DNA from: an uncultured bacterium
Lineage (GTDB): Bacteria > Babelota > Babeliae > Babelales > Babelaceae
Assembly: GCA_963819815.1 (NCBI GenBank)
Contig: CAWFXL010000001.1
Location: 160,001 to 224,000, forward strand
Direction of reading: 5' to 3'
Length of the DNA stretch: 64,000 bases
In this document: in pieces, positions 7,018-64,000 of the stretch
Layout of the letters: every line of letters starts with the position of its first letter
How positions within the stretch are numbered: the first letter of the stretch is position 1
Notes under the pieces: model-generated
Databases searched by the model: none
Told to the model about the DNA's origin: nothing
What the model saw: only the letters and a program-made list of their open reading frames with translations
Position numbers and translations under genes: made by a program

Positions 7018-7028
7018 AGGATCTTTTC

Positions 7029-23832: not shown

Positions 23833-25329
23833 TTAACACCGTCCACTTAGTTGGAGTGAACGCTTTTTGAGCCTTTCAAAAGACTTTGTATAGGCTTCAA
23901 AGAGGTCTTCATTTTCAATGATTACGACATTTTCCTGATTTTTTTCATTAGCCCTCATCGTAAGATTATACGATCCGGTCCAAACAAGCGCTTTACCCTC
24001 TATTGTCTGAGAGAAAAGCATAAATTTATTGTGCATAAGCCCTGCTTCAGATTTATTTGATGCGGTTTGGAACACCCAGAGTGGAATCTTAGCATTAGCG
24101 AGCATACACACCTCCTGTCCATATGAGCGGTCTACAACTCCTTCAACCAATACTCCTCTACGAGCAGCCCGTATAAGTGCTTCTGTTATAGCTTTATCGG
24201 TGAGTTTAAATATGGCAATAGAAATACGCTTTTTTTCAGCATCGATAAGCCTTATAAGTCTCGTGCTAAGATGGTCATCAGGGGAAAAAAATGGTTGCAC
24301 AACACAGCGCTGATGTGTCGAGAGGAGGGGATCTTCTTCTATAACGCTAGCGGGTGCTATGGAAATTTTGATACGTGGGGATGGGGTACTCGAAGCGTTA
24401 CTATTTGTAGCACTGCTACTGCTAGATGTACTCGATCTATCAGTGGTCTCGGTATTATCAGTATCTTTTTCTATAGATGGAACTTGAGTACTTAATAATG
24501 CAATAACCCTTGCCCGCGAACCTGCGGTGCTTTTCTTTGCTTCATCGAGCGCTGAGCTGCCTTTACTATCTGCGATAGAAGGATCTGCACCATGGGCAAG
24601 CAAGTATTCAACAACATCAGCATGACCATTCAAAGAAGCCAAATGTAATGCTGTCTGTTTATTAGCATATTTTTGGAAATTAGGGTCAACGCCGAGCTTT
24701 AGAAGTTCTTTGACTTCGTTAAGTTCTCCACTATCTGCTGCAATTAAGAGATCATACGCCAGACTCAAAAGGTCTCGCTCTTTTGGATTGCTTTTCTCAG
24801 CGGGCTGTATGTCAGATGAAATGCTAGCAACTGACTGATTACTCGAACTTTGGGTAGCATTTTTACTCGATGTGCTTGATTTCACCGCCGTTGCAACTTG
24901 ACTCGCATTTGTTTTAGCTCGAACTGAGGCTTTCAATAAAGCAATAACCTTTTCCCGCGAATCCGCAGTGCTTTTCCTTGCTGCATCTAGTGCTGTTTTG
25001 CCATCACTATCTCGAATATTGGGATTTGCGCCATGTGCAAGCAAGTATGCAACAACATCAACATGCCCATTAGAGGCCGCCAAATATAATGCTGTTTTCT
25101 TGCTACGGTTTTGATAATTGGGATCCACAATCCTTATGAGTTTCGTAACCTTTTTCAGATCTCCGCTATTCGAGGCATTAATAAATTGTGCCCCCTCCGA
25201 TGCCGTCTTTTTTGGGTTCCTTTTCATCGCAGATTTGCCGCTCAATTCTTTAACTGTTTTAGCAGGCAAGGTAGCCTTTTCCATCGAAATGACAATACCA
25301 AGTATTGAAAGTAGATATATGTGCTTCAT
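23833..25329 (-). CDS. Secreted ankyrin-repeat/PLD-domain fusion protein
   Basis: Two ankyrin modules, Ser/Thr linkers, C-terminal 'FFSP...MHNKFMLFS...WTGSYNLT...NQEN'. Confidence 0.88.
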   Translation of the reverse strand: MKHIYLLSILGIVISMEKATLPAKTVKELSGKSAMKRNPKKTASEGAQFINASNSGDLKKVTKLIRIVDPNYQNRSKKTALYLAASNGHVDVVAYLLAHGANPNIRDSDGKTALDAARKSTADSREKVIALLKASVRAKTNASQVATAVKSSTSSKNATQSSSNQSVASISSDIQPAEKSNPKERDLLSLAYDLLIAADSGELNEVKELLKLGVDPNFQKYANKQTALHLASLNGHADVVEYLLAHGADPSIADSKGSSALDEAKKSTAGSRARVIALLSTQVPSIEKDTDNTETTDRSSTSSSSSATNSNASSTPSPRIKISIAPASVIEEDPLLSTHQRCVVQPFFSPDDHLSTRLIRLIDAEKKRISIAIFKLTDKAITEALIRAARRGVLVEGVVDRSYGQEVCMLANAKIPLWVFQTASNKSEAGLMHNKFMLFSQTIEGKALVWTGSYNLTMRANEKNQENVVIIENEDLFEAYTKSFERLKKRSLQLSGRC

Positions 25330-25762
25330 GGGATACCTCTTTTTAAACGTTGCGGCCAATTAAATCAGCTCAAATTGTATCGATTGTGCTGTTTCGGTAA
25401 TTATTTAAGCATTATATTTTTTAAATATTTAATTCCATATGTATTATTGTATCAAATTTGATCTACCAGAGTAAAGAATTTGTGGGATGTCGACCACTTT
25501 TCATTATATTTCAGGTTAGAATATGCAGAGTAATAAAAGAGATTTAAGAGGTCTTTGGCCGTGAGGGCCGTCTGGTGGTTGTTTTGAAGTGGGGACATCT
25601 ATATTGCGGCAACGAGTTTACCACTTAAAGCTCTGGGGTCCGTTGAAGACCATGGTAGGGTGCTGATAAGAGCAGATGGGTCGTCTTTTAGGTACATTCA
25701 ATCATATTCGTGATTTTGAAGGTCTATGCAAAAGGAGACTTCTGTAGGGGCTTTTAAAGGTT

Positions 25763-34253: not shown

Positions 34254-35492
34254 TTGAACGCTATACCTACTCAAGTACTTATTTTGTTGATGTTCTCATG
34301 TGCTATGCGTGCAGCAACTAATGCCCAAACTGCTCAAAGGGATGTGCGTCTAATAAGACTAGAGACAGAGCTCAATAATGACAATGACAATCTTACCCGT
34401 TTGTATCGACAAGAGAACGCATCTCTTTCAGATGCACGGCTTTTGGCAGTAGTGCAAGCCAACCAATATCCTAACGCAAATCCTCAAGCACTTTCCGCTG
34501 ATTTCGCTCATTTTCAATTGAACATGAGAGCGCAGCACTATCAATATCTATTAATCGCCTGTCGAAATGGATGCCCTGATGTGGTACAACGGCTCTTTAA
34601 ACTTGGAATTACCCCTTTTTGTTCCGATTTGCAAGGAAGAACTCCGCTGCATAATGCCGCATTGAGCCAATCAGGTGAGGTTGTTAGATCTGTTACTCAA
34701 GCAAGGGATCTTCTCGAAAGTCGTTGTCAGAAATACTGGGATGGGAACCACGTTACCTGTATTCTTTGCAGTTCAATTCCAAAAGACATAACCCATGTGG
34801 ATGATAATGGTAGGACTCCCGTTGATCTCTATCTCGACCTTATCAATACCTTATTGTTCGCAGGAAAAAGAGTCTCTGGGCTTAACACTTGCTTACAGCT
34901 GTTATTTTTAAGAGCCGTAAGATTAGGTGTTCAACAGGAGGTCACTAAGGTATTAAACTTTTTTAGTGACATCCATACTGCAGTAATAAACGCAAACCAA
35001 CCAGGGCAAATCTTTGGGGATATTCTTGAGAACAGGCATCAATTTGTTCTTAATGGACACAATGGCCCTGACATTGAGCCTGCAGTTCATTTTATTGATA
35101 CTGAAGAAATCTTTAAAGATTCTGCGCTTCATATTGCGGCAAGAAATGGAGATCATACCCTTTTAGGGGCACTTCTTAATAGCATCAATCCTTACGACAG
35201 AGAAAGATTAGTTAAGAAAAAAAATGATTGTTCAGGCGGTGAAACAGCTTTAACGACCGCAATGTTTTATCTGAATTGGCACGTCGAACGTAAGTCAGAA
35301 ACGGAGGATAGAAGGGTTGATGTAGGGAAGGTCCAAGATCTTCTAAATTGTATTGCTCTTCTGCGTACAGCTGGCGCAGTGATTACGCAAGACCAAGATG
35401 AACTGCTTAATTGGGTGAATGGCTTACTTACCCCACAGTTTATAAACAATCCTATAGTAAGAGCTATTTTTCCACGCACGGAAACTGATTAA
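34254..35492 (+). CDS. Ankyrin-repeat protein, probably secreted
   Basis: 'GRTPLHNAA', 'DSALHIAARNG', 'GETALTTA'; TTG start after GAGG. Confidence 0.85.
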   Translation: MNAIPTQVLILLMFSCAMRAATNAQTAQRDVRLIRLETELNNDNDNLTRLYRQENASLSDARLLAVVQANQYPNANPQALSADFAHFQLNMRAQHYQYLLIACRNGCPDVVQRLFKLGITPFCSDLQGRTPLHNAALSQSGEVVRSVTQARDLLESRCQKYWDGNHVTCILCSSIPKDITHVDDNGRTPVDLYLDLINTLLFAGKRVSGLNTCLQLLFLRAVRLGVQQEVTKVLNFFSDIHTAVINANQPGQIFGDILENRHQFVLNGHNGPDIEPAVHFIDTEEIFKDSALHIAARNGDHTLLGALLNSINPYDRERLVKKKNDCSGGETALTTAMFYLNWHVERKSETEDRRVDVGKVQDLLNCIALLRTAGAVITQDQDELLNWVNGLLTPQFINNPIVRAIFPRTETD

Positions 35493-37461: not shown

Positions 37462-38463
37462 ATGAAATTAGTATGTGTACTCAGCTTGCTTTTTATGAGC
37501 CAGGCTCTTGCGATGAATAATGCTGACTTTGATGATTTCAACTTAAGCGGTGTTGTGAGAGTGCAGAGAACTCTCCATGATGCTGCGAAAAATAATGATG
37601 GAGCACTTCTTACGGAACTTATTAATGAGGGTTCAGATGTTGATGCTCTCGCTGTGGGCAGGGGAGTAACGATGGATGGTATGACGCCACTCTTTTGTTG
37701 TATTGTACACGAAGGTACAGAAGAGAATATTGATGCTCTCAAGGTACTTATCAGCAATGGTGCGGATCTTAATCTTCGCCGTGGTAAACGTACGCCAATT
37801 CATTGGGCACTCGAGCAAAAGCGTTTTGCCAGTGCAGAAGAATTAATCATTGCTGGAGCTAATCTGAAAATTCTTGGTCACTTTGAGAATACCTTTCTAC
37901 ATTGTGTTATAGAGGAGAATGCTCCTATCAGAATTCTACGTGCACTACTTAAAAGGGGTCTTTCTCAAGCGGTGAACGCAAGCAATGTGCGTGACGAGAC
38001 GCCTCTCATGGTTGCGGCCGGTAAGTGTAATAACCTCAAGGCTGTCGTAGTGATGTGCAATGCAGGTGCGGATGTAGCTTTAGAAAATTCCGGGGGGCAG
38101 AACGCCTTAGAAATTGCAGATAGTTATGGCAATATTAAGATTATGAGAGCATTGATTGCACGCGGGGCAACATCGGACGAGATGCTTTACATTGCATCCA
38201 AGTGCAATGCGCATGAAACTGTCAAAGCATTACTTGAGGCTGGCTGCAATGTAAATGAAAAAAGGGATGATCAGGGGGGGGCTACTGCTCTTCATATAGC
38301 GGCTGAATTCGATGCATTTGAGTCTGCGCAAGTACTTATTGGAGCTGGAGCAGATGTAAATGCTTTGATGTTGAGCTCTATTAATACTCCGATATCTGTG
38401 CTAGCATTGGCAACCGAAGATAGTCAGCTCGCTGCGCTTTTAAAATCTGCAGGAGCGAAATAA
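37462..38463 (+). CDS. Secreted ankyrin-repeat protein
   Basis: Signal peptide; 'TPLFCC', 'TPIHWA', 'TPLMVAA', 'GATALHIAA'. Confidence 0.93.
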   Translation: MKLVCVLSLLFMSQALAMNNADFDDFNLSGVVRVQRTLHDAAKNNDGALLTELINEGSDVDALAVGRGVTMDGMTPLFCCIVHEGTEENIDALKVLISNGADLNLRRGKRTPIHWALEQKRFASAEELIIAGANLKILGHFENTFLHCVIEENAPIRILRALLKRGLSQAVNASNVRDETPLMVAAGKCNNLKAVVVMCNAGADVALENSGGQNALEIADSYGNIKIMRALIARGATSDEMLYIASKCNAHETVKALLEAGCNVNEKRDDQGGATALHIAAEFDAFESAQVLIGAGADVNALMLSSINTPISVLALATEDSQLAALLKSAGAK

Positions 38464-38779: not shown

Positions 38780-40630
38780 ATGAAGAATCAAAAAAGCATC
38801 TATATGAAGGGCTCAGGAATGCTCGGTGCAGTAGTTGCATTTTTCTGCCTCTTCGTGTCTGGTGAGCTCATTGCGGCGGCCCCTGATGACTGCTGTAACT
38901 TTATCCCTATAACGGCACTTCCGTTTGTATGTCAAATGTCAGCTCACTATAAGATAGTGAATGATGTTGTATTTGGAGAATCTCAAACTTCTCAAGGTAA
39001 GACCGATGGCAAGCTTCAAGCTGGTATCGTCCAGCCACCAGCATGTCCTGTGCTCCCGGCCGTAGTCTTTGGAATAACCATTGCTGCAGATAAAGTAACG
39101 GTTGATGGTAATAATAAAACGGTTGCAATTGTAGGAGAGAATGTAGGAGGAGTAGTCGTAGCCAATGGGGTAACCGATGCGGTAGTAAATGGGGTTAAAG
39201 TCGTAGGTGATGCTGTCTCGGTTGTCCAAGTAGGAGTAGCAGTTTCGTCTGTAGTTGCTACCGTAAGCGGTGTTAGTGTAGTAAATGTTGGTGTCGCTTC
39301 TGTGGCAGAAGTAACAGCGCCTCCACTTGTAAATGTTGGGCAGGGTCCAGTCCCTCCTGTTGCGGGAGCGGTGGTAGTGGCTCCTATTGTGTCTGAAGTA
39401 GTTGCTCGCTCCAAAGGGCTTGGCCAATCGGGGGTGATTGAAGGTGGCGGTGTACTTATAGAAGATTTGAATGTTTCAAATAGTATCAACGGCGTAACTA
39501 TTCAAGGATCAAATGTAAATGTTATTCTAAGAGATAGCTTTATTTCCGATAGCATCGAAATGGGTATTTCGCAGCCAAACAGGAGTGGATTCGAGGGGAA
39601 CTTTATACTTGAGAATGTCCAAATTACCGATTCTGGGATTAATGGCATTTATACTACTTTTAATCAGGACAATTGGATTCTCAAGAACGTGCAAATTCGT
39701 AATAGTGGATTTAATGGAGCAATCTTTGAAGGGTTTCAGAATCTGAGTATTATAGATAGCCAGATTTTTGACAGCGGCGCAAAAGGGCTTGTTGCGAGCA
39801 TTAGACAAAGTCAAAATATTTCCCTTATTGGTCTAGAAATTTTTAATAGTGGTGATGAAGCATTGCGTGTCGACAATGTCCAAAATCTTTTTATAGACCG
39901 CAGTCTTTTTACTAACTATAACCCGACGTCCTTGCCGCTTGCTAAGATCCAGGATGTTAATAATGGCTTAATAAAGAACAGCCAGTTTATGAGTTTTGGT
40001 GGATTATCTGACGGACTCTTCATCAGAAATTCTCATGGACTTATCGTGGATTCGAATCTTGTGAAAGTATTTAATAATTTCTCAAGCGAGACTCCAGTTT
40101 CGCAGCCACCAAACCTTTCCGGTAATCCAATTGGGAACTATATTCAGCAAAAATACTGCTCGGCACCACCAACCTCTAAGGGTGTAAATGGTCCGGTAGG
40201 TATAAATCTGCAGGGAGGTGTCACAGCTGCACAGATAAAAAATACGGTAGTATCGGGAACTCCTTCGATTGGGATAGCTGTTCAAGCAGATAGCTTAAAT
40301 GGAATTGATGAAGGTGTAATACTTGAAAACGTTCTTGTTGATGGAGCTCAAAATAGTGGGATCCTTTTTGATAGTGCACTTAATTCTGCTGTCTTTAATT
40401 CACAGGTAGTTAATGGCCAGGGTGACGGTATCACAATCTCAGGTAGTAGCAATACCGCCGTGCGTGGAAATACGCTTACGAATAACCGTGCCTTTGGCGT
40501 GAGAGATAACGGAGTACATTCACAGATCTATCAAAATTTTGCCTCAGCTAACGGCGCAAATTATACCTCAAATATTCTTACTTCAAGGCCAACTGCAGAT
40601 CTTGGGTCCCTAGAAAATATTAGTAGTTAA
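38780..40630 (+). CDS. Secreted right-handed beta-helix (pectin-lyase-like) repeat protein
   Basis: Repeats 'ILENVQITDSGINGI', 'ILKNVQIRNSGFNGA'; signal peptide; start moved from 38507 on RBS evidence. Confidence 0.8.
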   Translation: MKNQKSIYMKGSGMLGAVVAFFCLFVSGELIAAAPDDCCNFIPITALPFVCQMSAHYKIVNDVVFGESQTSQGKTDGKLQAGIVQPPACPVLPAVVFGITIAADKVTVDGNNKTVAIVGENVGGVVVANGVTDAVVNGVKVVGDAVSVVQVGVAVSSVVATVSGVSVVNVGVASVAEVTAPPLVNVGQGPVPPVAGAVVVAPIVSEVVARSKGLGQSGVIEGGGVLIEDLNVSNSINGVTIQGSNVNVILRDSFISDSIEMGISQPNRSGFEGNFILENVQITDSGINGIYTTFNQDNWILKNVQIRNSGFNGAIFEGFQNLSIIDSQIFDSGAKGLVASIRQSQNISLIGLEIFNSGDEALRVDNVQNLFIDRSLFTNYNPTSLPLAKIQDVNNGLIKNSQFMSFGGLSDGLFIRNSHGLIVDSNLVKVFNNFSSETPVSQPPNLSGNPIGNYIQQKYCSAPPTSKGVNGPVGINLQGGVTAAQIKNTVVSGTPSIGIAVQADSLNGIDEGVILENVLVDGAQNSGILFDSALNSAVFNSQVVNGQGDGITISGSSNTAVRGNTLTNNRAFGVRDNGVHSQIYQNFASANGANYTSNILTSRPTADLGSLENISS

Positions 40631-47503: not shown

Positions 47504-48967
47504 TTAGACATATTCTCTGAATAAATCATCAAGCGTTACTACTCCAGAGATGAGGTCTTCTGAATAGATGGTCTTTTTAAGGCCACTGGCAGAAATCATT
47601 GCAAGATAGAGCGTTTTTCGTGTTTTTGTTTGTTTTGCGAATACTGCGCATTTTTTTTGTAGTACTTGGGCATATTCCTTATCTATTGCAAAAGCCTTTT
47701 CAGTATATTTTATCTCACAGAGCGTTATTGATCGATCCTCTCTATCAAATAATAAATCAATTTGTGCTCCTTGCTCAGGAGAGCCCTTTTTTGGCACGAA
47801 GCGCCATTGGGATGCACCGGCCATTGTGAGATTTACCGCTTGTCTAATCAAAGGGACATGCTTATTGCAAATTGATTCAAAAGCACATCCTGCCCAGCTA
47901 TGCCATGCTGGAGAGTTTTGAACCTTCGTCCAATGTCCTTTCTCTTCCCCCCGTTCTATCATTTCTTTTTTTGGCTCTATCCACTTAAAGTAGAAGAGGC
48001 TATATTCGTCTGACATCTTATAGAAGATCCCTTTCTTTTTGCGACCAAAAGAGGTGAATCGTTGAATGAATCCTGTTTGCTCGAGCACTTCAAGGTGAGA
48101 CTTTAACCAGCCACCTGACTCTTGGACAGTCACCTGATCAAAAAGCTCTTCCTGGCCGATTCCATAACAATGCTGAGCTATAATTCTTGCCAATTCAGCG
48201 TGAATACTATCTTGGCCAAACAGCGTGGCATAGAGGAGCGAAAACTCCTTCAACAGAAAACTATCCTTTTTGAAAGCAAGATACTCAATGTTCTGCATAG
48301 CCGATAATCCAGCCTTTATTTGATCCAAATAAAACGGAATACCACCGATAACCATATAGAGATGGACAATATCATTATTAGCTAGCTTTACTTTCTTATG
48401 TTTCAAATACTCTTTTGTCTGATGCAAGTCGAATGGCTTTAGGTGGATCACCCGAGTAGCACGGTTATAGAGCCCCCCGATATTGTGAATGATATTTTTT
48501 AAAATCCAGTTCGATGCTGAACCGCAAATAATCAACTTAATTCTTCGGTCCATAGACCAATGGCGATTCCAAAAGTAATCGAGCATTTGAAGTAATTGAG
48601 ATTTTCTCGTAACCATCCAAGGAAATTCATCAAAGAACAAGACAATTTTCTTTTTCTGCGATAATTCGATCGTATTAGTGAGCAGATTAAATGTTTCTCT
48701 CCAATCCTTTTTAACACTGAGCTCAGGATGCCCAAAGGCACGAGCGATAGAGTCAGTAAATTGTGCAATTTGTTGCTCTTGAGTCCCGTCCTTTATGCCT
48801 GTTACGTACAAAAAGATGCTATTCGTTTTTTTTGAAAAGGTGTTCCTCACGAGAAATGTTTTTCCAACTCTTCGTCTGCCATAAAGGGCAATAAACTCAG
48901 GGTTGTCTGAATTGTAGGCTTCTTCAAGTATTTCTTTCTCTTCTTTTCTTCCAATAATCTTAAACAT
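47504..48967 (-). CDS. Archaeal-type/STAND-like ATPase with winged-HTH and C-terminal PD-(D/E)XK nuclease domain
   Basis: 'IIGR..E', Walker A 'GRRRVGKT', Walker B 'FFDEFPW', 'CGS', 'GGIPFYL', 'FE...QIDLL...EIKY'. Confidence 0.9.
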   Translation of the reverse strand: MFKIIGRKEEKEILEEAYNSDNPEFIALYGRRRVGKTFLVRNTFSKKTNSIFLYVTGIKDGTQEQQIAQFTDSIARAFGHPELSVKKDWRETFNLLTNTIELSQKKKIVLFFDEFPWMVTRKSQLLQMLDYFWNRHWSMDRRIKLIICGSASNWILKNIIHNIGGLYNRATRVIHLKPFDLHQTKEYLKHKKVKLANNDIVHLYMVIGGIPFYLDQIKAGLSAMQNIEYLAFKKDSFLLKEFSLLYATLFGQDSIHAELARIIAQHCYGIGQEELFDQVTVQESGGWLKSHLEVLEQTGFIQRFTSFGRKKKGIFYKMSDEYSLFYFKWIEPKKEMIERGEEKGHWTKVQNSPAWHSWAGCAFESICNKHVPLIRQAVNLTMAGASQWRFVPKKGSPEQGAQIDLLFDREDRSITLCEIKYTEKAFAIDKEYAQVLQKKCAVFAKQTKTRKTLYLAMISASGLKKTIYSEDLISGVVTLDDLFREYV

Positions 48968-49064
48968 ATGACTCCCAGGATATGTAACTTTTAATATACT
49001 TTCTAATAAGGTTTACATAGAGACGTTTGCAGTGTGCCTGGAATGGCCTTCCTCTATTTGAGAC

Positions 49065-49298
49065 TTATGCCGCGAAGTATAATCTACTATATTCCGCGGT
49101 ATAAAGCGAGGATTTTGATTATACCGCGGAATATAATTTTTTTTCCGACTCGAAATCTTATGCTTTGTTTGGTCGATTAGATAGTGATTTATTAAGACTC
49201 AAATTTATACCGCGAAATATAGATTTTTATATTCCGCGGTATAAATCAGGAATTTTGATTATACCGCGACTTATAATTTTTTATATACCGCGGTATAA
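49065..49298. repeat. Array of seven 17-bp TTATACCGCGGAATATA-like arms forming 40-bp inverted-repeat units
   Basis: Units at 49065-49104, 49119 (left arm only), 49205-49244, 49259-49298; 54-bp period; blocks offset by 140 bp. Confidence 0.95.
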
Positions 49299-49481
49299 GT
49301 TGGGAAATTTTTGGTATTAAACCAAAGGAAACAGAGGGTGTCGTTTTTGTACGATCAGATATAGTTAATAAGCTTGATTCAAAGAAGCTATCGAGTGTTT
49401 GAACCAAATTTTGCCTTGACTCCTCGCGTTTAAGTCGATACGTTAGGATTCATGACTTATACCAAGTAGAGGAATAGACTC

Positions 49482-50354
49482 ATGATGAATGTGATGGTAG
49501 CGCTCCTATGCTCTTTACTATGGGCAGGAGTGACTATTGGAAGTAAAATGCTTTCGGGAGCTCTTCCTTTTTTTGCCTTTGCTTTTCTGCGTTATTCATT
49601 GGCTGCTTTATGCTTACTCCCCATACTACTTATGCGGAAAGATAAGGAAGAGCTGAAAGTACGCTATCTTCCCACTCTTATGTTTTTAGGGTTTACGCTT
49701 GTGTTCCTGTTTAATGCATTATTCTTTAATGCTCTATATTATAGTTCAGCAACATCGGTAGCTCTCATAGGTGCTACTAATCCTATTTTGACTATGCTGG
49801 TATCTGCTGTAGTGTTTAGACATATTCCAAATAGGTACCAGCTTTTAGCGTTTATGCTTTCTTTTGCGGGAGCGGCCTTGGTAATTACCGAAGGAAAAAT
49901 GGGAGTTGCTGTGTTAATGGGAAGTGTTGGAGATTTTCTTATGCTTCTAGGGGTGCTTTGCCAGATACTCTATACTATGGCATTAAATAGGGTGAGTGTT
50001 CACTTTTCGCCGCTATTCCTATCATTTGCTACAATAGTAAGTGGTGTTCTATTTGTGTTTCCCTTTATAATAAGCAAAGAATTTGTTCACGTTGTAACGC
50101 ATCTTACGGTAGGACAATGGGGGATCTTTGCTTTCATTAGCTGCCTTGGAACAGCATTGGCCATCTATCTCTACTCCTATGCTATCAAGCATATGGGCCC
50201 TGCGAGGACTAGCTTAATCGTTTTTAGTTCGATGCCCGTCTTTGTATTCTTGCTTGCATTCCTGATATTGGGAGAGAGCATTTCAGTGTGGCAGCTACTT
50301 GGGGGCATTCTTGTTGTATCTTCATTAGTGATTGGTTTGCGGCATACCCGATAA
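49482..50354 (+). CDS. DMT/EamA family transporter
   Basis: About 10 TM; 'FAFLRY', 'ATNPILT', 'LAFLILGE'. Confidence 0.92.
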   Translation: MMNVMVALLCSLLWAGVTIGSKMLSGALPFFAFAFLRYSLAALCLLPILLMRKDKEELKVRYLPTLMFLGFTLVFLFNALFFNALYYSSATSVALIGATNPILTMLVSAVVFRHIPNRYQLLAFMLSFAGAALVITEGKMGVAVLMGSVGDFLMLLGVLCQILYTMALNRVSVHFSPLFLSFATIVSGVLFVFPFIISKEFVHVVTHLTVGQWGIFAFISCLGTALAIYLYSYAIKHMGPARTSLIVFSSMPVFVFLLAFLILGESISVWQLLGGILVVSSLVIGLRHTR

Positions 50355-50552: not shown

Positions 50553-51425
50553 ATGATGAATGTGATTATAGCACTTCTATGTTCCTTACTTTCGGCGGGA
50601 GTGACGATTGGCGGCAAAATGTTTACGGTAGCTCTTCCGGCATTTGCTTTTGCCTTCTTACGATATGGATTAGCTTCTTTTTTCCTATTGCCCCTTTTCA
50701 TTATAAATAAAGAGAAAGAAGCTGTTAAATTACACGATCTTCCGGTCTTCATGTTTTTAGGGTTTACCCTTGTATTCCTGTTTAATGCACTATTTTTTAA
50801 CGCTTTATATTATAGTTCAGCAACCTCGGTAACGCTTATAGGTGCTACCAATCCGATTTTGACTATGCTCGTCTCAGCCGTGGTTTTTAGACAGGTTCCT
50901 AATAAATATCAAGCGTTGGCATTTCTGTTATCTTTTGTAGGGGCGGTCCTCGTAATTACTGAAGGAGAAATGGCCTTAGAAAAGTTAGGCGGAAATATTG
51001 GAGAATTGCTTATGCTTTTGGCAGTTCTTTGCCAGATAACGTATGGCATGGTATTGAAAAAGGTAAGTGCACATTTTTCTCCTCTAACTCTTTCATTTGC
51101 TACATTGACAACGGGTATACTTTGCGTATTGCCATTTGTTGCCAACAGGGAATTTGTCTCTATCGTAACGAATCTTACCCTTTGGCAATGGGGTATGTTC
51201 GTCTGCATTAGTGGTCTTGGAACGGCCTTAGACATATATCTATACTCACTTGCGATAAAACGTATGGGCCCAGCACAGACGAGCTTAATTATATTTAGTT
51301 CGATGCCTATCTTCGTGTTTTTGCTTGCATTCCTGATATTAGGAGAGGGCATTTCAGCGTGGCAGCTGCTCGGGGGTATCCTTGTTGTATCTTCATTAGT
51401 GGTCGGGTTACGTCATACCCGGTAA
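50553..51425 (+). CDS. DMT/EamA family transporter, tandem paralog
   Basis: Same length (290 aa) and colinear with the previous gene. Confidence 0.92.
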   Translation: MMNVIIALLCSLLSAGVTIGGKMFTVALPAFAFAFLRYGLASFFLLPLFIINKEKEAVKLHDLPVFMFLGFTLVFLFNALFFNALYYSSATSVTLIGATNPILTMLVSAVVFRQVPNKYQALAFLLSFVGAVLVITEGEMALEKLGGNIGELLMLLAVLCQITYGMVLKKVSAHFSPLTLSFATLTTGILCVLPFVANREFVSIVTNLTLWQWGMFVCISGLGTALDIYLYSLAIKRMGPAQTSLIIFSSMPIFVFLLAFLILGEGISAWQLLGGILVVSSLVVGLRHTR

Positions 51426-54436: not shown

Positions 54437-55629
54437 ATGAACAGGCACCGGCTGCTAGGCAGTATACTCTTTTTATTGAGTGTTTTCTCCCCCTCTCAAG
54501 AGGTGTATTCCTATGTGTACGGGTATACGCGATTATACAGACCAGATACCCAAACAACACTTGACCTAGTCTATGACTACCACAAAGCTTCCGACTATCT
54601 CTCCCATGAAGAAATGAATTCCTTCTTATGTGATGATATTAAACAGGGGCTGTATTCTTCGGAGAAGACCTTTGTTGAGTCTCTTGAGCATCTTAATCGA
54701 ACAAATCCCCATGATACAACGGTGATCTGGGAAAATGCACCGAACTTTGTTCCAGCTGAGGTTCATCTCCTTACCTATCCGCAGCGGCTTGTCACAAATC
54801 GCCTACGCCAATTGAGCTTTATTCCCGCAGATACCTGGCGATCTGACTATCCAGGATGTCTCATGTCAGTGTTGCGCGGTGGTAGCTAGAAAATCGAGTT
54901 GATCGTCGTGCTATTATCCAAAACCACGGATCTCAGGTATGGGATGGGTACAAAGCATTAATGGGTACTACGCTTCGCAAACTGAAAACTACCTATGGGG
55001 CACACCGTGAAAGGGTGGCCTACTCGAGACTTGGCGATGATCTGTATAAAGAACTTTTCTTTGCAAAGCCACCTTATTCTGAACTCGCTGATTTAGAAAT
55101 GATATCCCAAATCTTACAATCTCCTCATCGCCATATTGTCCTCTTTGCTGGAGGACTCCACTGTCATAACATTGTGGACTTTCTTTTCTCTGCAGCCTCC
55201 TTTGAGGTGATTCATTCTGTAGTTGATCGGGATTGGGTAGAGATTGATCCCCATGAGCTTAAGCGGATTGCCCACAGTCATGGCCGAGAAACCCGAACTC
55301 CCCAAAGACCATATCGTGCCCCTAACCCAGGACCTAGTACAAGACCTGTACGGCCGGGCAAGACAGCCAAGCCAGCACCGCTTAAGACCAAGAAAAAGCC
55401 ACCTACAGAGATAGCTGAGAAGCAGAAGAAGCAGCTGCTCGTAGGAGGAGCGGTAGCTCTTGGAGCTCTTATGTTATCTGCGTACCGTGAAAGTAAGGAC
55501 ACTGGAGTAGCTATGTCGGGTATAGCACAGCGCAAACTGCTGAACACCTTGAAATATGGCGCAATACCAGGTCTGCTCTACTACGCATTGATTAAGAATC
55601 AAAAATATCAGAGTGCACTGACTGCTTAA
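54437..55629 (+). CDS. Secreted/membrane hypothetical protein, copy 1 (frameshift near 54887)
   Basis: ORFs 54437-54889 and 54961-55629 are colinear with 55668-56801; one T missing relative to paralog (AGCTAGA vs AGCTTAGA). Confidence 0.8.
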
Positions 55630-55667
55630 ATATGGATCTAGAGGAAAATTTGAAAGGGAGGTTGCTC

Positions 55668-56801
55668 GTGAACAGGATAGGTAAAATACTCCTCTTATTG
55701 CACGTTTTCTATCTCCCACAAGTATATGGCTATGTGTGTGGGTATACGCGGTTATATAGTCCTGAAACACAAACGACGCTGGATTTTGTGTATGATGTTC
55801 ATAAAGATTCGAAGAAACTATCTCATGATCAAATGCATAACCTCTCCTGTGATGATCTTTTGCAGAAACTTTATCCTTCTGAGAAGGCCCTCGTTGAGTC
55901 CCTTGAGCATCTTAATCGAACAAATCCCCATGATACAACGGTGATCTGGGAATATGCACCAAACTTTATTCCTGCTGAGGTTCATCTCCTTGCCCATCCA
56001 GAGCGGCTTGTCACGAATCGCCTACGCAAAGTGAGCTTTATTCCCGGAGATACCTGGCGATCTGACTATCCAGGATGTCTCATGTCAGTGTTGCATGGAG
56101 GTAGCTTAGAGCATCGAGTGGATCGCCGTGCCATTATCAAGAACTACGGATCTTGCGTGTGGGAGGGATACAAGGAATTAATGGAGACTGCGCTTCGCAA
56201 CCTGAAAACTTCCTATGGGGCACATCGCGAAAAAATAGCAGATTCAAGATTTGGCGATGATCTCTATTTCGAACTATTCTTTGGAGGGACTCCCTACGTT
56301 GTACTTGCTGATTTAGAAATGATAGCCAACATATTGCAATCGCCTCATCATCATATTGTCCTCTATGCTGGGGGGCTCCACTGTTATGAGGTTGTGAAGT
56401 TCCTTTTATCTACGGCCTCTTTTGAGATGATACATACCGTAGTAAATGAGGATAGGTCAGAGATTAATTCTCAAGAGCTTAAGCGGATCAGAAGACCAGG
56501 CAACTCTCGTGCGCTCAATCCAACGTCTGGCACGAGACCTGTGCAGCCTGGCAAGTCAGCCAAGCCGTCAGTAGAGATAGCTGCTTCTGAAAGTAAGAAG
56601 AAGCGCCTGTTCCTAGGAGGGGCAATAGCTCTTGGAGCTCTTATGCTATCTGTATACTGTGAAAGCCAGTAGACGTGAGTAGCTCTGTCGAATATAGCAC
56701 AGCGCAAACTGGTGAACACCTTGAAATATGGTGCAATACCAGCAGGTTTGCTCTATTTTTTATGGAAGAGATCTCAAGATCAGACAACAAAGTCTGCTTG
56801 A
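55668..56801 (+). CDS. Tandem paralog, copy 2, with two in-frame stops at 56670-56678
   Basis: GTG start after GGGAGG; homology to copy 1 continues past TAG 56670 and TGA 56676. Confidence 0.75.
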
Positions 56802-57899: not shown

Positions 57900-58193
57900 A
57901 TGAACTTGCTTAAAATTTCGTTTGCGGCGATTGTGGTAAGCTTTGGGCTTTGCGCTCCATCCTTTGCCCATCGTTACGTCAATCCAACCTACTATTCAAA
58001 GTGTTACGACTGTCCAACTCAGGTAGTCTACCAAGAACCTGTGTACGTTCAGAGGGTACCTATGGTTGAGTATGTTCAACCTGTGTATGTACAACCTACC
58101 TATGTTCGTCAGTATCGTTCATATCATAGACCACACCGTCATCACTACCGTCACTCATACCGACCATCAATTAACTTTTCATTTGGTTTTTAA
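57900..58193 (+). CDS. Small secreted Tyr/Pro/Val/His-rich protein
   Basis: Signal peptide, 'VYQEPVYVQ' repeats, His/Arg tail, ends FSFGF. Confidence 0.75.
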   Translation: MNLLKISFAAIVVSFGLCAPSFAHRYVNPTYYSKCYDCPTQVVYQEPVYVQRVPMVEYVQPVYVQPTYVRQYRSYHRPHRHHYRHSYRPSINFSFGF

Positions 58194-58202
58194 GTGATTG
58201 AA

Positions 58203-58229
58203 GGAGGTACTCATATACAGAGTACCTCC
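58203..58229. terminator. Hairpin between convergent genes
   Basis: GGAGGTACTC-7 nt-GAGTACCTCC. Confidence 0.65.
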
Positions 58230-58282
58230 CATTGCTTAGCTTTGAAGCGCTACCACTTGATTACTTGATGGGTATCCACGTC

Positions 58283-59488
58283 CTATTTTTTTTGATAACG
58301 GCGTAGGGGAAGAAGGGTGATAATGCTGAGAAAGCTTATAATTCCCGCTATGCAAAATGCAGCTTTGGCGCCTATCATACGCCAGATGATTCCTAGTATA
58401 ATACTCGAGAGCAACGCAGCAAGACTATCAATAGTATTGATAATGCCATAACCTGTTCCACGTACATTCTCAGGTAGAACATCCGCAGCAAGAGATTTCT
58501 GTAGACTTACGTAGGTTCCTGCGCTAAATCCTGAAAGGAAGAAGATGCAGAGGGCTGAAATGAGTGAGGTACTCTGCCAGGCAAGAAGAAAACACATAAT
58601 CCCAAAAAATCCAAAGCCTCCTATCCCTAAAGGAATAAGGCGTCCAATCTTATCGCTGATAGATCCCATTGCATAACTTGAAAATGTCTGAATAATATTG
58701 CGGAAAATATACATAAGAGCAACGGTACTTAATGCTACTGCCGCAGAAGCCCCTGGAGAGAGTACTTCTTGCATGCGCAGTACTAAGAGACTTTTATTAA
58801 AATTACCTAATCCAAACATCAGAAAAACCCCCATAAGATAATAGAAAGCCCTGGGTAAGGAATTCTTAAAGATAAACAAGAACGAAAATGGTTCATTGGT
58901 GACAGTATGCGGAACATCTTTGACCAGCATATATATAATAAGACAGGCAAGAACTCCTGGAATGAGCGTTATGAGAAAGAGCTTATGCGGTGACCAGTCA
59001 GCAAGAAAATAGACAATGAGTGGACCAAGTATCGATCCAAGAGTATCAAAGGCCTGTCTAAATCCAAAAGCTCTTCCGTAATAGGCTTGAGGAGTTGAAT
59101 CAGCAATGATAGCACTTCGGGGAGCACTGATGATACCTCTTCCAATCCAGGCTCCTGTCATGAGGAGAAATACGGTAACCCAATGGTTAGCAAAAGCAAG
59201 GAGACCTACGAGTGATCCTGCAAGAAAATAGCCAAAGACAATCATAGGTTTACGGTTCGTAAGCTGGTCACTCAATTTTCCAGCATAGAGACCCGAGAGA
59301 CTTGCTACGGCTGTAGAGGTTCCTCCAATAAGGGCCACATAAGGAGGTGCGGCATCTTTTCCGAGCAACTGAGAAATCAATAGAGGAAGTATGAGTGGTA
59401 CAACTTCATGACTTGCGTCACTCATAGTGCTCGCCAAGCTAAATCCGACGACGTTCTTAGTAAGCCATTGTGGATAAGAAATTTTCAT
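58283..59488 (-). CDS. MFS transporter
   Basis: About 12 TM; 'GKLSDQL..RKP', 'GRAFGFRQAFDTLG', 'GSISDKIGR'; start MKISY after AAAGGAG. Confidence 0.93.
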   Translation of the reverse strand: MKISYPQWLTKNVVGFSLASTMSDASHEVVPLILPLLISQLLGKDAAPPYVALIGGTSTAVASLSGLYAGKLSDQLTNRKPMIVFGYFLAGSLVGLLAFANHWVTVFLLMTGAWIGRGIISAPRSAIIADSTPQAYYGRAFGFRQAFDTLGSILGPLIVYFLADWSPHKLFLITLIPGVLACLIIYMLVKDVPHTVTNEPFSFLFIFKNSLPRAFYYLMGVFLMFGLGNFNKSLLVLRMQEVLSPGASAAVALSTVALMYIFRNIIQTFSSYAMGSISDKIGRLIPLGIGGFGFFGIMCFLLAWQSTSLISALCIFFLSGFSAGTYVSLQKSLAADVLPENVRGTGYGIINTIDSLAALLSSIILGIIWRMIGAKAAFCIAGIISFLSIITLLPLRRYQKK

Positions 59489-59543
59489 GGGATCTCCTTT
59501 TGAAGGAGTATACACAGGTCTTTTTCAAAAAATATAGATTTTG
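59480..59543 (+). repeat. 64-bp direct repeat, copy 1
   Basis: 63/64 identical to 61324-61387. Confidence 0.97.
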
Positions 59544-59692
59544 GTGGTAATTGGGCGTAGAATAGCACCCATGAGAAAAAGATGATACCAACAGCTCATG
59601 AAGTGGTTTTTACTACGCAGTCTGCTATCTAAAATTCTGCGCAGTAGATTTGCTCACTTCCTTTACATGTACTCTTTTGGGTATGATAGATC

Positions 59693-61135
59693 TTAGTTGT
59701 CGGGTGAGAAGATATCTGAAAAATTAATAATTTTTGCAAAAAAACCATTTGCTATAACTTCTTCATCGACGCCATTCACGTGAACTAAAACGGGCCTCAT
59801 TGAAAACCCTTTGGGATGAATCAGATGGGCCATTTTTTTTTGCATCTCTTTTATCACAGCTTTTCCAACGGGGTTTTTGGAAAACTTAAACTCACAAAGC
59901 CATAGCCCCCCGAAATGTGTCTGAATAAGATAATCAATCTGGCATCCAGGGAGCTTATTTGTCTTTCGTTGGAAAAAGGGATTGTCAGATACTATTTCAT
60001 CATGGCTGATTCCTAAGCAGTCCTTAATATATTGGCGATTTCTTAAAACGAGGTTGTCAAATTGCAGACCCATAAGAGAATCCCATCCGGGAAGCAATGA
60101 GAGTGATTTGGCAGTAAATGTATCAGTTTCTATTTTGGGTAGGTTTTTTTCAATATATTTCAAATAAAATCTTACGTAGTTATCGCTTAAGCGAAAATGA
60201 CTTAACCGTGAAGCTTCTCCTGAAGCAATATGCCAAGTATAGTCACGACTGACAAAGCCAGACTTTATAAGATCTTCAAGATATTCGCCTACAGATCCGC
60301 CTTGGTTTAACTCGAGTATTTTAGTTATTTCCTTAAGTTCACGAGCACCGTCTGCAAGGGTCTCAATAATTTTCTTATAGGTTTCAGTGCGCCGGGAAAA
60401 GATGTCATTAAAGATATCTTTAAACTCATGAACCAAAAGACCACGTTTAGTGAAACAGAGTTTGCGAATCGTTTGCTCTGCGGGTAAAGAAGGATTCATT
60501 TCTTCAAGATACCGAGGGACTCCACCGGTTACTGAGAGTACTTTTAGTTTTTCATAGGCCGAAATGAAATCCCCATTCTGAGCCCAAAACTGGTTACACT
60601 CTTTGAGTGGGAGCTCTTCAAGGGTGAGCCGATAAGATATTCGGCCAACGAAACCGGTGCTTGATAAGATGTTTTTATCGATCCACGTAGAAACTGATCC
60701 ACACAGGACAAGAATGAGGTTAGGGTTTTTCGCGAAATAGATGTCCCAGGCGTTCTTGAGTTTCCCTAAAAATTCAGGATCTTTTGAACCCATCCATGAA
60801 ATCTCATCAAATAGAACAATAATCCTACCGGTTTGAATGTCCCTATGCAACAAAATGAAGAGTTTGCTCCAATCGTCAGCAAAAACCTCAGGGGTTCCTG
60901 TTTGAGCGCTTAATTGACGAGAAAACTCATCTAATTGTGACTGCATCGTTGTGGCAGCGACAGGTGGGCTACCGGAAAAGTGGTAGAATGTATGATTCTT
61001 AGCAAATTCTTCAACGAGACGACTTTTGCCGATTCGTCGACGTCCCTGAATAACGACGAGACTTGCAGTTTTTTTTTCAAATAATTCCGAAAGCTCAGCT
61101 AGTTCACGCTTTCTACCAATAAATGGGCGGGCCAT
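59693..61135 (-). CDS. Archaeal-type/STAND-like ATPase with winged-HTH and C-terminal PD-(D/E)XK nuclease domain
   Basis: 'FIGR..E', 'GRRRIGKS', 'LFDEISW', 'CGS', 'GGVPRYL', 'QIDYL...EFKF'; start MARPF after GGAG. Confidence 0.9.
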   Translation of the reverse strand: MARPFIGRKRELAELSELFEKKTASLVVIQGRRRIGKSRLVEEFAKNHTFYHFSGSPPVAATTMQSQLDEFSRQLSAQTGTPEVFADDWSKLFILLHRDIQTGRIIVLFDEISWMGSKDPEFLGKLKNAWDIYFAKNPNLILVLCGSVSTWIDKNILSSTGFVGRISYRLTLEELPLKECNQFWAQNGDFISAYEKLKVLSVTGGVPRYLEEMNPSLPAEQTIRKLCFTKRGLLVHEFKDIFNDIFSRRTETYKKIIETLADGARELKEITKILELNQGGSVGEYLEDLIKSGFVSRDYTWHIASGEASRLSHFRLSDNYVRFYLKYIEKNLPKIETDTFTAKSLSLLPGWDSLMGLQFDNLVLRNRQYIKDCLGISHDEIVSDNPFFQRKTNKLPGCQIDYLIQTHFGGLWLCEFKFSKNPVGKAVIKEMQKKMAHLIHPKGFSMRPVLVHVNGVDEEVIANGFFAKIINFSDIFSPDN

Positions 61136-61167
61136 AGGGTACTCCAATATCAAAAACTTTCTAAAGA

Positions 61168-61262
61168 TCACTAATCATAAATGGAAAAAGCCAATTATGA
61201 TTGGTGAAACTCTGCCCCAAGTTTACCACTCATAATTGGAAAAAGTCGATTATGATTAGTGA
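61168..61262. repeat. Two tandem 40-bp inverted-repeat units (55-bp period)
   Basis: TCACTAATCATAAATGG-AAAAAG-CCAATTATGATTGGTGA and TTACCACTCATAATTGG-AAAAAG-TCGATTATGATTAGTGA. Confidence 0.93.
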
Positions 61263-61323
61263 AACTTTGAGAGCGCTGAATTGTCCTACCTTTTCCATGC
61301 CCCCCGATTGCATGTAGATATGT

Positions 61324-61387
61324 AATTTTCATGGGATCTCCTTTTGAAGGAGTATACATAGGTCTTTTTCAAAAAATATAGATTTTG
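61324..61387 (+). repeat. 64-bp direct repeat, copy 2
   Basis: 63/64 identical to 59480-59543. Confidence 0.97.
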
Positions 61388-61447
61388 AGTACATTTGAGA
61401 GTACACTTACCGGCATATGGGCAGGTCCTCTTCAGAAAGGGTTTTCT

Positions 61448-62074
61448 ATGAATCGCTATCATGCTTTTCTTTGTAGTGTACTATTCTGCGGCTTACTCTT
61501 TGGATCTGAGCAGCGGACTCTTCAAAGAACCTATTCTACGTTTCCAGCTGCAGATGCTCTTAAGCGTGCCATACGCAGAGGTGATGTTGATATCGTTAGG
61601 GAGCGCATGGCGGTGCTACCTCTCGGCATTGATTCTCAGTATGCGTATCTAGGATTAGCTCGTTCGTTTGATATGTGTAGCTTTTTGCTTGATGCGATCT
61701 GTTCTTCTTGGGTTGAGCGAATTAAAAGATCACCGCAAGATGCCCTAAAAACTCTTCATGTAGGACTTACTAGACTTTATAAATCGTTTCCGCTTGATGA
61801 GCTTGATCATGGGTTTCGATGTACTCTTGCTAAAATCAGAAGAGCAGCGCTTCTGTTACCCCGCGTAGCTGCGGATCCAAAAGCAAAAGCCCTTGCAAGT
61901 TCGATTCCCGACTATTTTTATCACCATGATGCTAGGATGATACAGGCTTACCGGGAAGCTTTTGAGGAGCACACCGATCTGAGTCCAGAGCGTAAGGAGC
62001 TTCTTTCAAGAGCCCATAGAATATATACGAGAACACTTCTGATTCAATCACAATCGCAAGAGACAGCTGACTAG
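61448..62074 (+). CDS. Secreted hypothetical protein with one ankyrin-like segment
   Basis: Signal peptide MNRYHAFL; 'LKRAIRRGDVDIVR'. Confidence 0.6.
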   Translation: MNRYHAFLCSVLFCGLLFGSEQRTLQRTYSTFPAADALKRAIRRGDVDIVRERMAVLPLGIDSQYAYLGLARSFDMCSFLLDAICSSWVERIKRSPQDALKTLHVGLTRLYKSFPLDELDHGFRCTLAKIRRAALLLPRVAADPKAKALASSIPDYFYHHDARMIQAYREAFEEHTDLSPERKELLSRAHRIYTRTLLIQSQSQETAD

Positions 62075-62312
62075 CATGCTCGAAGGGTGCTCCATGATGT
62101 GTGGTTGTCATGCCTCGTCAGTTATTCTCTTACTAATTCGGCGGCAAGTCGCAGAAATTATCTTCTAAAGATACTAATGAGTTACGACTTTGGAATGGAA
62201 TAATCAATACGCTCACAACTTGAATTTGCGAGCTGAAGTAAAATGATCTACGATACTATCTAAGACTTTCTTGCCTGAGTAACACAATAATACATAATGA
62301 GAGAGATTGCAC

Positions 62313-64000
62313 ATGGTTATTCGTTATCTTACCTACGCTTGTTTTTTGACGTCTTTTTATTACCTGCAGGGTGCAGCACTTTTACGCACACCTCTGAGCC
62401 CCTGTAAGCCTGGAATTCTTCAGGCTGTCAAGAACGATGTACATGCACATGTTGAAGAAGTCACTCAGCGGTGTCTTGAAGCAAGTGACCTTCATGCAGC
62501 AGCTGTTGCCGGTGACATACCAAAGACGAGAGATCTAGCTTTATCACATGAAAAAACTCCGCCACGTGTTCTAAGCCCTTTAATGTGTGCACTTGCTCAA
62601 AGACATACCGAAGTTGCTCGACTTCTTTTGAAAATGAGAAGTTTTGAAGTTGCTCAACAGGATCAGTGGGGCCTAACAGCGCTTTTCTATGCACTTAATG
62701 GGAGCACAGATCTTATTGATGAACTTCTTGATCAAGGTGCACATGCGCATCTGAGAGGTGTCCAACTGCTCGACGTTCTCTTCCTTGCGGCTCTCTTTGA
62801 GCAGCAAGATGTCATCGAGAAACTTCGCGAGGTAAGCGCTCAACCAAACATCGAACCTTATGGTAGTAACTTTTTTACATTCGTAAAAAGCGATCTGTTT
62901 AAAGCACTATTTGCTGATGCTTCACAATTCGATACGTTCGATGTCTTCAATTTTGTCGCCCTTACCGGTAAATCAAGGGAGTTTGATCCATCTGGTTCTG
63001 GATGCACCTATACCTGTGAAAAGTTACGGTTCGCTCTTGAAAAGCATCTAAAAAAAACACAGCCAAATAATCTGCCATTGCTTCGAGCGATTCTTGCAAA
63101 TAATCCACAAAGGGTTGCATCACTGATCGAGCGAGGTGCTTTGCCGGTAGCCCATTATCCAGATACCATAAGTCCTATTGACGTTGCCGCTCTAGTTGGT
63201 TCTGCGGAGGTTATAGATAGCCTTGTTACGACAGGCAAGAAAAAGAATAATTTTCACTTTCTTCCGTATCGCTTAGGTGGCGCTGCTCACTTTCTTAGAG
63301 GTCTAAACGGTGAACCTATGCTTACCGAACTTAATCAACTTCACCTTGCTGCTCTTGCATCAAATTGGCCTGCTCTCAGGCAATTGAGTACCTATGGGTT
63401 TACTAGTAATCGAGGTGAGCTAACTCCTCTTCACCTTGCGAGCCAATGGGCAACTCCTGAAACGGTTGCTACGCTTCTTGAGCTCGGGGCGAATGTAAGC
63501 AGTAGGGATGAATCAGGCCTCCTGCCACTTCATTTCGCCATAGATAACATCGATGTGCGTGCTGTAACTGCACTGTTAATCAGGGGAGGCGCATCACTCA
63601 GAGAATTTTTAGACAAGTACTCAACGGGCGCATCTATTACAACAACTCGGCGCAGTTCATCATTAAGAAGCAGTGAATTTATTCGAGGCATTCTCGATGC
63701 CCTTACTGACCTTGACGAAAATAACGGTGCACTATTGATCACTACTCTCCAAGCAGGGGGCATTCCTCAAGTTGCGATGCTTTTGAAAGCGGGTGCTCGA
63801 GCAGATACGCATGATGATCGAGGAAGAACAGTTATTCATCACACGGTAGAAGCATGCTGTAAAAAATCTCTGCGCCCTGAAGATACTTCTGCACTTATTA
63901 AGTTGCTTACTACTCATGGAGCAGACATTGATGCACAAGATGCTCATAATAAAACGGCCCTCAATCGTGCCATTGATCGCCGGTGTATGATGGTTTGGGT
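62313..64000 (+). CDS. Secreted ankyrin-repeat protein, runs off the window end (absent from ORF track)
   Basis: Hand translation from ATG 62313: MVIRYLTYACFL..., 'GLTALFYA', 'LTPLHLASQW', 'GANVSSRDESGLLPLHFA'. Confidence 0.88.
   Translation, partial: MVIRYLTYACFLTSFYYLQGAALLRTPLSPCKPGILQAVKNDVHAHVEEVTQRCLEASDLHAAAVAGDIPKTRDLALSHEKTPPRVLSPLMCALAQRHTEVARLLLKMRSFEVAQQDQWGLTALFYALNGSTDLIDELLDQGAHAHLRGVQLLDVLFLAALFEQQDVIEKLREVSAQPNIEPYGSNFFTFVKSDLFKALFADASQFDTFDVFNFVALTGKSREFDPSGSGCTYTCEKLRFALEKHLKKTQPNNLPLLRAILANNPQRVASLIERGALPVAHYPDTISPIDVAALVGSAEVIDSLVTTGKKKNNFHFLPYRLGGAAHFLRGLNGEPMLTELNQLHLAALASNWPALRQLSTYGFTSNRGELTPLHLASQWATPETVATLLELGANVSSRDESGLLPLHFAIDNIDVRAVTALLIRGGASLREFLDKYSTGASITTTRRSSSLRSSEFIRGILDALTDLDENNGALLITTLQAGGIPQVAMLLKAGARADTHDDRGRTVIHHTVEACCKKSLRPEDTSALIKLLTTHGADIDAQDAHNKTALNRAIDRRCMMVW

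Follow-up and report, generated by a model that had tools for sequence, protein, structure and literature searches.

A repeat-bounded ATPase-nuclease cassette with a palindromic array in a Babelaceae genome

The window analyzed here, a 64,000-nucleotide (nt) stretch of DNA from an uncultured bacterium of the family Babelaceae (GenBank assembly GCA_963819815.1, contig CAWFXL010000001.1, positions 160,001 to 224,000), contains the gene of a predicted ATPase-nuclease of 480 amino acids (aa), preceded by a short array of palindromic units. Gene and array are bounded by two direct repeats, beyond which lie a major facilitator superfamily (MFS) transporter gene on one side and a divergent open reading frame (ORF) of 229 aa on the other. 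We consider it probable that this 1.77-kb unit is a foreign cassette inserted between the MFS gene and the 229-aa ORF, and that the repeats represent a long target duplication of variable length and not the attachment (att) sites of a site-specific recombinase.

The cassette and its flanking repeats

A single family of long direct repeats was found in the region, consisting of copy A (59469-59543) and copy B (61313-61387), each of 75 nt, identical at 71 of 75 positions (95%) and 1844 nt apart from start to start. Within them blastn-short delimits a 64-nt core, 59480-59543 versus 61324-61387, with 63 of 64 positions identical (98.4%). Three of the four mismatches over the 75 nt are grouped in the last 13 nt, at the coding end. 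The repeat takes in all of the divergent intergenic region: one end is the TTG at which the 229-aa ORF starts, the other is codon 6-7 of the MFS gene, and the MFS ribosome-binding site and ATG are included. An earlier reading of the letters alone (the original prediction) had described repeats with this content and this degree of core identity, followed by weaker similarity over a few codons, and both statements are confirmed: the MFS N-terminus joined to copy A reads MKISYPQW, and the orphan start in copy B reads MKITYLHA.

Both neighbours of the cassette are intact. Copy A, with the ribosome-binding site, the ATG (59488-59486) and the first 6-7 codons, adjoins the MFS gene (58283-59488, minus strand, 401 aa; Pfam MFS_1, 1.6e-46), which has a 97%-identical relative (P0121) with the same N-terminus. 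The right end of copy B is the TTG (61385-61387) of the 229-aa ORF (61385-62074, plus strand), which belongs to no known family and is also present in its 229-aa form in the protein collection searched; no NCBIfam family was assigned to this ORF or to the ATPase gene. At copy B, the duplicated MFS promoter and start appear to face the array and the ATPase gene, which may be read from this borrowed promoter besides its own. From the duplicated ATG a 45-aa orphan ORF (MKITYLHAIGG...; 61332 down to a stop at 61195, minus strand) runs across the array, probably as a by-product of the duplication. A promoter and terminator scan of 59300-61600 gave sites no more often than in shuffled sequence, and none within the repeat.

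Repeats can mislead assemblers, and an assembly artefact or a chance similarity would have to be considered for any such pair; nothing specific in the data points to either. The two copies differ at four of 75 positions, their flanks are unique, the contig measures 1.6 Mb, and a 33-nt core pattern of the repeat occurs exactly twice in the 64-kb window with no occurrence expected from 100 shuffles. We regard this explanation as extremely improbable.

The unit between the two 64-nt cores (59544-61323, 1780 nt) contains one 480-aa ORF and the array, in agreement with the 1.78-kb unit originally described as carrying only these two features. Measured between the 75-nt repeats, the cassette interior (59544-61312, minus strand, 1769 nt) consists of the ATPase-nuclease gene with a 149-nt 3′ spacer behind it and, ahead of it, a 28-nt leader, the array and 43 nt of unique sequence. 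The 3′ spacer (59544-59692, minus strand) has a hairpin with a 10-bp stem after the stop codon; its folding is not above that of shuffled sequences (z -1.6) and it corresponds to no Rfam family, in line with an Rfam search of 58000-62500, which was empty at E values up to 1. Neither conserved nor inverted termini were found at the ends of this cassette or at the homologous loci discussed below.

The ATPase-nuclease and its palindromic array

From Pfam, PADLOC and an AlphaFold2 model, the 480-aa protein (59693-61135, minus strand) is predicted to combine an AAA+ ATPase of the ORC/Cdc6-STAND-like type, a winged helix and a C-terminal PD-(D/E)xK nuclease. It matches Pfam ATPase_2 (PF01637) at 2.2e-16 with 60.8 bits (cutoff 33.2), shows weak Pfam winged-helix matches at residues 250-298, and aligns from residue 4 to residue 476 with positions 3-473 of the 474 in PADLOC profile PDLC04984 (PDC-S27, candidate defence; E 4.3e-91). 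PMC12988326 describes PDC-S27 as an ATPase fused to a PD-(D/E)xK domain and states that most PDCs await validation. In an alignment of 32 homologs with 26-82% identity, the Walker A motif (G31-R-R-R-x-G36-K37) and the Walker B motif (D110-E111) are invariant, as are D401 and E415, and K417 is conserved in at least 90% of the sequences. The AlphaFold2 model (predicted local distance difference test 90, predicted template-modelling (TM) score 0.87) shows an alpha-beta-beta-beta-alpha-beta core around D401, E415 and K417, made up of a helix at residues 351-374, strands at 381-389, 398-406 and 410-417, a second helix at 426-437 and a last strand at 445-452.

In a Foldseek search, the N-terminal 375 residues matched best 2qen (PABY2304) and 2fna (SSO1545), with a TM-score of ~0.65 on the target, and also ORC2, ORC/Cdc6 (1w5t, 2qby), CED-4 and plant NLRs; for the C-terminal part, Foldseek returned no match to a solved nuclease fold. 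A sequence search of the PDB gave nothing below E 0.08, and the protein has no Pfam match to DUF234 (PF03008) at E 0.01 or better, a domain that, together with COG1672, is tabulated among the PD-(D/E)XK families in PMC3424549. The label "ATPase-nuclease" is justified, with the predicted nuclease part resting on the motif and the predicted fold. A homodimer prediction (two copies, alignment A3) scored 0.00 and is not used as evidence either way.

The array (61164-61269) consists of two 51-nt units placed 55 nt apart, each an imperfect palindrome with two 17-nt inverted arms around AAAAAG. It shares with the flanking repeat only an A-rich 8-9-mer, which is not counted as similarity. A survey of homologous loci took the top-scoring internal direct repeat within the 160 nt ahead of the start codon and counted it when its spacing was 53-55 nt and its score 9 or more. 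Such a pair was present at 29 of 47 loci (the window included) versus 5 of 260 other ORFs; the 29 are a lower bound, as some starts are misplaced, and one locus (L034; homologous loci carry numbers of this form) has the pair in alignment A1 and is yet uncounted. Most of the remaining loci have at least one palindromic unit. The centre of the array is semi-conserved (GACA..TGTC-like), and the outer arms vary by lineage. At L014, a third copy of the 40-nt palindromic unit (7913-7952) is located downstream of the cassette, ~60 nt before a dnaB-like ORF (8012-9418).

Paralogs within one genome have different arms (L017 versus L039, L006 versus L028, L015/L042, and the two modules of the window), as expected if each protein recognizes only its own array. 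The second module of the window belongs to an ATPase_2+DUF234 gene (47504-48967, minus strand, 487 aa; DUF234 6.6e-08) whose product is 25% identical to the cassette protein. Upstream of it (49062-49310) are four palindromic units of the form TTATACCGCG...CGCGGTATAA, arranged as two pairs with 54 nt between units within a pair and 140 nt between the pairs; no flanking direct repeat was seen at this gene. A Wolbachia phage WO record (MN180249.1, locus L062) encodes a DUF234-type homolog of 29% identity among phage head genes, with two 38-nt palindromic units 56 nt apart directly before the ATG (2903-2996), and its CCGCGGTA arms resemble those of the second module of the window. A homolog on a Desulfosarcina plasmid (L061) has an upstream repeat spaced 54 nt. 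Neither the plasmid nor the phage locus, each with its upstream repeat pair, has flanking repeats. The array is the presumed operator of the cassette's own protein, which would bind it through the winged helix in a form of autoregulation; because the protein would bind its own array, gene and array would move together and the arms of co-resident paralogs would differ.

The extent of homology between related loci indicates that gene and array travel together as one insertable module. In Wolbachia strains, copies of 84-90% identity are homologous only from ~85 nt upstream of the gene, that is, the array, to ~5 nt past the stop codon, and the flanks are unrelated. The match of L034 with L029 is confined to 5917-7420, and homology is likewise limited to the module in L003 versus L013, L033 versus L037/L038, and L016 versus L011. 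The module-limited homology in Wolbachia, together with the palindrome pair at 29 of the 47 loci, bears out the proposal that gene and array form one travelling unit.

The family is widely spread. Homologs with 60-83% identity come from Parachlamydiaceae, Rickettsia, Tisiphia, Paracaedibacteraceae, Legionella, Francisellaceae, Bdellovibrionota and others, and several genomes have two or three copies of the module. The window's protein is the only member of its 90% cluster; its nearest homolog among the best 120, 83% identical, is on a contig of 12,681 nt, and a 64% paralog (P0054) is on a 1,604,641-nt contig. Since identities of 60-83% extend across Chlamydiae-like bacteria, Rickettsiales, Legionellales, Francisellaceae and Bdellovibrionota, the family can serve as a marker of gene flow among intracellular bacteria. 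A few individual loci have a layout of their own. In Wolbachia wStri (L029), the module lies between inverted copies (3781-5049 and the 9468-10740 region) of a 1269-nt sequence like an insertion sequence (IS), 99.8% identical to each other, in a composite-transposon-like layout; L032 and L049 are parts of a 12-kb segmental duplication within one genome. Many of the listed homologs are on contigs of just 1.7-2.5 kb, near the size of the module, which could be repeat-collapsed or circular units, or merely abundant short metagenome contigs.

Flanking repeats at homologous loci and the mode of insertion

The original prediction had suggested looking for flanking repeats around other homologs, and such repeats are present. 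A genome scan gave 60 loci, a set that includes neither the source genome nor the loci of the 79-83% homologs P0002-P0005; 15 of the 60 were dropped with no complete ORF delimitable. At each of the 45 remaining loci, the 900 nt ahead of the gene were compared with the 1200 nt behind it for a direct repeat. Repeats of 18-203 nt were found at six of the 45 and at none of 102 control ORFs (350-650 aa, from the same sequences); a BLAST version with 4 kb on each side returned the same set of loci. Under a stricter geometry with an exact match of at least 18 nt, the counts are 5 of 41 family loci versus 1 of 125 controls, the latter being a single 19-mer. Given as identical positions over repeat length and as distances of the two copies from the gene, the six are L003 (53/56; upstream -328, downstream +8), L014 (56/67; -336, +5), L016 (78/83; -213, +855, in a unit which also holds a 164-aa ORF), L030 (18/18; -246, +19), L033 (193/203; -386, +182) and L056 (55/59, or 77 nt by BLAST; -163, +39). 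At the level of sequence, the repeats are made of local material, including sequence of neighbouring genes, and are probably derived from the target. At L003, an intact convergent ORF has the downstream copy as its last 18 codons; its upstream counterpart is orphaned and meets a premature stop. At L014 and L016, the upstream copy starts 15 nt and 4 nt, respectively, after the stop codon of the neighbouring gene.

The original prediction interpreted the repeats of the window as products of attL/attR-like site-specific integration. On this account, a site-specific recombinase would have acted in trans on the repeats as attL and attR, and the module would be a non-autonomous integrative element. 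In its favour, the unit between the direct repeats lacks a recombinase, and an overlap with a gene end, such as the repeat shows, is frequent among att sites. The repeats of the seven loci (the window and the six homologs), however, share no sequence, length or distance to the gene, and one integrase cannot account for them. The predicted lack of a recombinase gene holds well beyond the cassette: Pfam searches of the unit and of 49 of the 51 window ORFs of at least 150 aa gave no domain of a recombinase, integrase, resolvase or transposase, the two ORFs left out (38939-39427 and 39016-39489) both overlapping a larger one. The only tRNA genes of the window are 15 kb away from the cassette. More generally, both a single site-specific recombinase and a classical transposase are disfavoured, because the repeats vary in length, sequence and distance to the gene, the extra sequence inside the unit is variable, and the ends are neither conserved nor inverted. 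The att interpretation of the original prediction is thus not upheld, and we judge it distinctly improbable; the pattern fits a variable target duplication or a crossover of the Campbell type better than a dedicated att site.

A further question is whether the cassette was gained at this site at all. The closest relative of the MFS protein (P0121, 97% identical) and the only relative of the 229-aa protein (P0184, 85% identical) are each encoded on a contig of 53,599 nt, and none of the best 120 ATPase homologs (at least 59% identity) is on a contig of that size. Taking equal contig size together with absence from the list of the best 120 as a proxy for the empty site, a close relative very probably carries the two neighbours together and lacks the cassette. 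The same picture would result if the relative had lost the cassette precisely, by recombination of one repeat with the other; in both cases, the cassette comes or goes as one unit. The insertion claimed in the original prediction has gained an indirect sign of an empty site in this relative, which appears to lack a close ATPase homolog; its epithet "recent" is plausible from the 63 of 64 identical core positions and is undated.

This relative also bears on the opposite order of events, in which the ATPase gene is ancestral between its neighbours and the 75-bp start region of the MFS gene was later copied upstream of it. In favour of this order, a duplicated promoter and start would provide the ATPase gene with an additional promoter. 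Against it stand the relative, with both neighbours and apparently no close homolog of the gene; the recurrence of the same flanking-repeat geometry at unrelated sites in other bacteria; and the distribution of the nearest ATPase homologs, at 60-83% identity, over unrelated phyla. We consider it very improbable.

In the explanation that we favour, a cassette made up of the ATPase-nuclease gene and its two-unit array would have been inserted into the short divergent intergenic region, and the insertion would have duplicated a 64-75-bp target segment bounded by the TTG of the 229-aa ORF and by MFS codon 6-7. Because the target was duplicated, the MFS gene and the 229-aa ORF would each have retained their own start and full upstream region. 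Most simply, insertion would have taken place at widely staggered breaks followed by fill-in, and the breaks may have been made either by host repair or by the cassette's own nuclease. When the duplicated segment covers an intergenic region or the end of a gene, the neighbours stay intact, and insertions of this kind would be those to survive.

Several observations weigh against a target duplication. The empty site is deduced from equal contig size and absence among 120 matches and was not seen as DNA. Neither a transposase nor terminal inverted repeats nor conserved ends of the cassette were found. Flanking repeats are missing at 39 of the 45 homolog loci, matches of 11-17 nt between the flanks of these loci are not in excess over controls, and one control ORF does have a 19-nt flank match. 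Most repeat pairs are ~5% diverged, L014 shows 16% and no long pair is identical, which also fits a homologous stretch brought in by the donor. L033 is part of a mosaic of larger duplications, with a transposase-like ORF next to it, and both of its repeat copies are clpX 3′ fragments. The L056 repeat (3443-3650) corresponds to the module's own 5′ region including one palindromic unit, followed only by ATG-AAT-TAG. Lastly, the loci are partly dependent: L032 and L049 belong to one 12-kb duplication, and L018, L024, L025 and L053 are syntenic. The layout at L056 resembles what the loss or exchange of a second cassette would leave behind, and a HigA-like ORF follows on the other strand.

The divergence between repeat copies leads to the main rival, a Campbell-type integration. 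Here a circle carrying the module together with homology to the intergenic region between the MFS gene and the 229-aa ORF would enter by one RecA-dependent crossover, which leaves the homology as direct repeats; the circle could derive from an earlier excision, through recombination of the two repeats, at this locus in another strain. RecA is encoded in the genome (10474-11559), repeats of 56-203 nt are long enough for homologous recombination, and variability of length is natural in such a process. The ~5% divergence of most pairs, as well as the three mismatches grouped in the last 13 nt of the window repeat, fit differences between donor and recipient, and a repeat formed by the module's own 5′ region, as at L056, is expected from recombination with a resident copy. 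On the other hand, such a crossover leaves the first insertion unexplained. Both repeat/cassette junctions are illegitimate, with no MFS or 229-aa ORF sequence running into the cassette, and the circle must for that reason stem from a pre-existing copy already bounded by repeats. In addition, the 18-nt repeat of L030 is short for RecA. We regard a crossover of this type as unlikely for the window. A terminal redundancy of the rolling-circle kind was also considered and rejected for the window, where the N-terminus encoded by the repeat is the native one of the MFS protein, common to its relatives.

If the favoured target duplication took place, the module itself might supply the activity. As an autonomous one-protein mobile element, it would use the winged helix of its ORC/Cdc6-like ATPase to recognize the cognate palindrome pair and its PD-(D/E)xK domain to make widely spaced nicks in the target, giving a long variable target duplication without a DDE, tyrosine or serine recombinase. 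We offer this as a speculative and quite unlikely extension. If true, it would amount to a new class of transposable elements, and thousands of "candidate defence" genes would be read differently.

Other features of the window are unrelated to the cassette. Two adjacent ORFs of 222 and 346 aa (54961-55629 and 55632-56672), without a Pfam or NCBIfam family, are tandem paralogs sharing the pattern …YGAHRE…GDDLY.ELFF…LADLEMI..ILQSPH.HIVL.AGGLHC…, the first of which looks N-terminally shortened. A second tandem pair consists of EamA transporter paralogs (49482-50354 and 50553-51425), 77% identical over the first 300 nt. Ankyrin-repeat proteins are numerous (8021-10171, 16506-17123, 23833-25359, 34254-35492, 37462-38463 and 62307-63998), one of them fused to a PLD-like domain. 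Together with the 42% G+C of the window and the 1.6-Mb contig, they suggest an intracellular lifestyle.

Relation to known systems

The gene family is already known as a candidate; the repeat-bounded cassettes and the array are undescribed in the literature found by our narrow searches. As candidate defence genes go, PDC-S27-type ATPase-nucleases are comparatively common (4562 bacterial and 3503 archaeal instances in one survey, PMC12988326), and the same narrow searches found no account in print of their movement or control. Two testable handles are offered here, namely a palindrome pair spaced by ~54 nt with lineage-specific arms, which extends even to a paralog of 25% identity and to a record of Wolbachia phage WO, and the long duplications of local sequence that recur at the flanks. 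Biochemical work could start directly from the array as a candidate binding site, the repeats mark out the unit of gain and loss, and the recurring flanking copies point to an undescribed mode of movement for the gene family.

Among the closest known systems is PDC-S27 of PADLOC, with which the cassette protein shares the full-length profile match and the fusion of an ATPase to a PD-(D/E)xK domain; the flanking repeats and the palindromic array of the window cassette, in contrast, are not in the family description as far as it is given in the available part of PMC12988326. The protein resembles the ATPase_2/DUF234 group (PF01637, PF03008, COG1672) in its ATPase_2 match and in its best structural matches, 2qen and 2fna, whose solved structures span the ATPase and winged-helix part only. 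It differs in falling below the DUF234 model, and its nuclease is predicted from D401, E415 and K417 and the modelled fold.

Among mobile elements, the insertions of IS1549 and IS1634 offer a parallel in their variable and unusually long duplications (8-514 bp there versus 18-203 nt here), for which PMC2266710 gives no accepted mechanism. Unlike the cassette, for which neither a transposase nor conserved or inverted ends were found, IS1549 and IS1634 come with a DDE transposase and with terminal inverted repeats. Elements bounded by attL and attR without an integrase of their own likewise have direct repeats around a recombinase-less unit and a repeat that overlaps a gene end, but the repeats of the cassette family are unlike at every locus and very different in length, and no integrase was found in the window. 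Archaeal Orc1/Cdc6 initiators with their origin recognition boxes, finally, share the AAA+ and winged-helix fold (1w5t, 2qby) and the adjacent paired inverted repeats. No evidence of replication was found for the cassette, and its protein differs from these initiators in having an additional predicted nuclease domain and an array placed, in the manner of an operator, directly before its own start codon.

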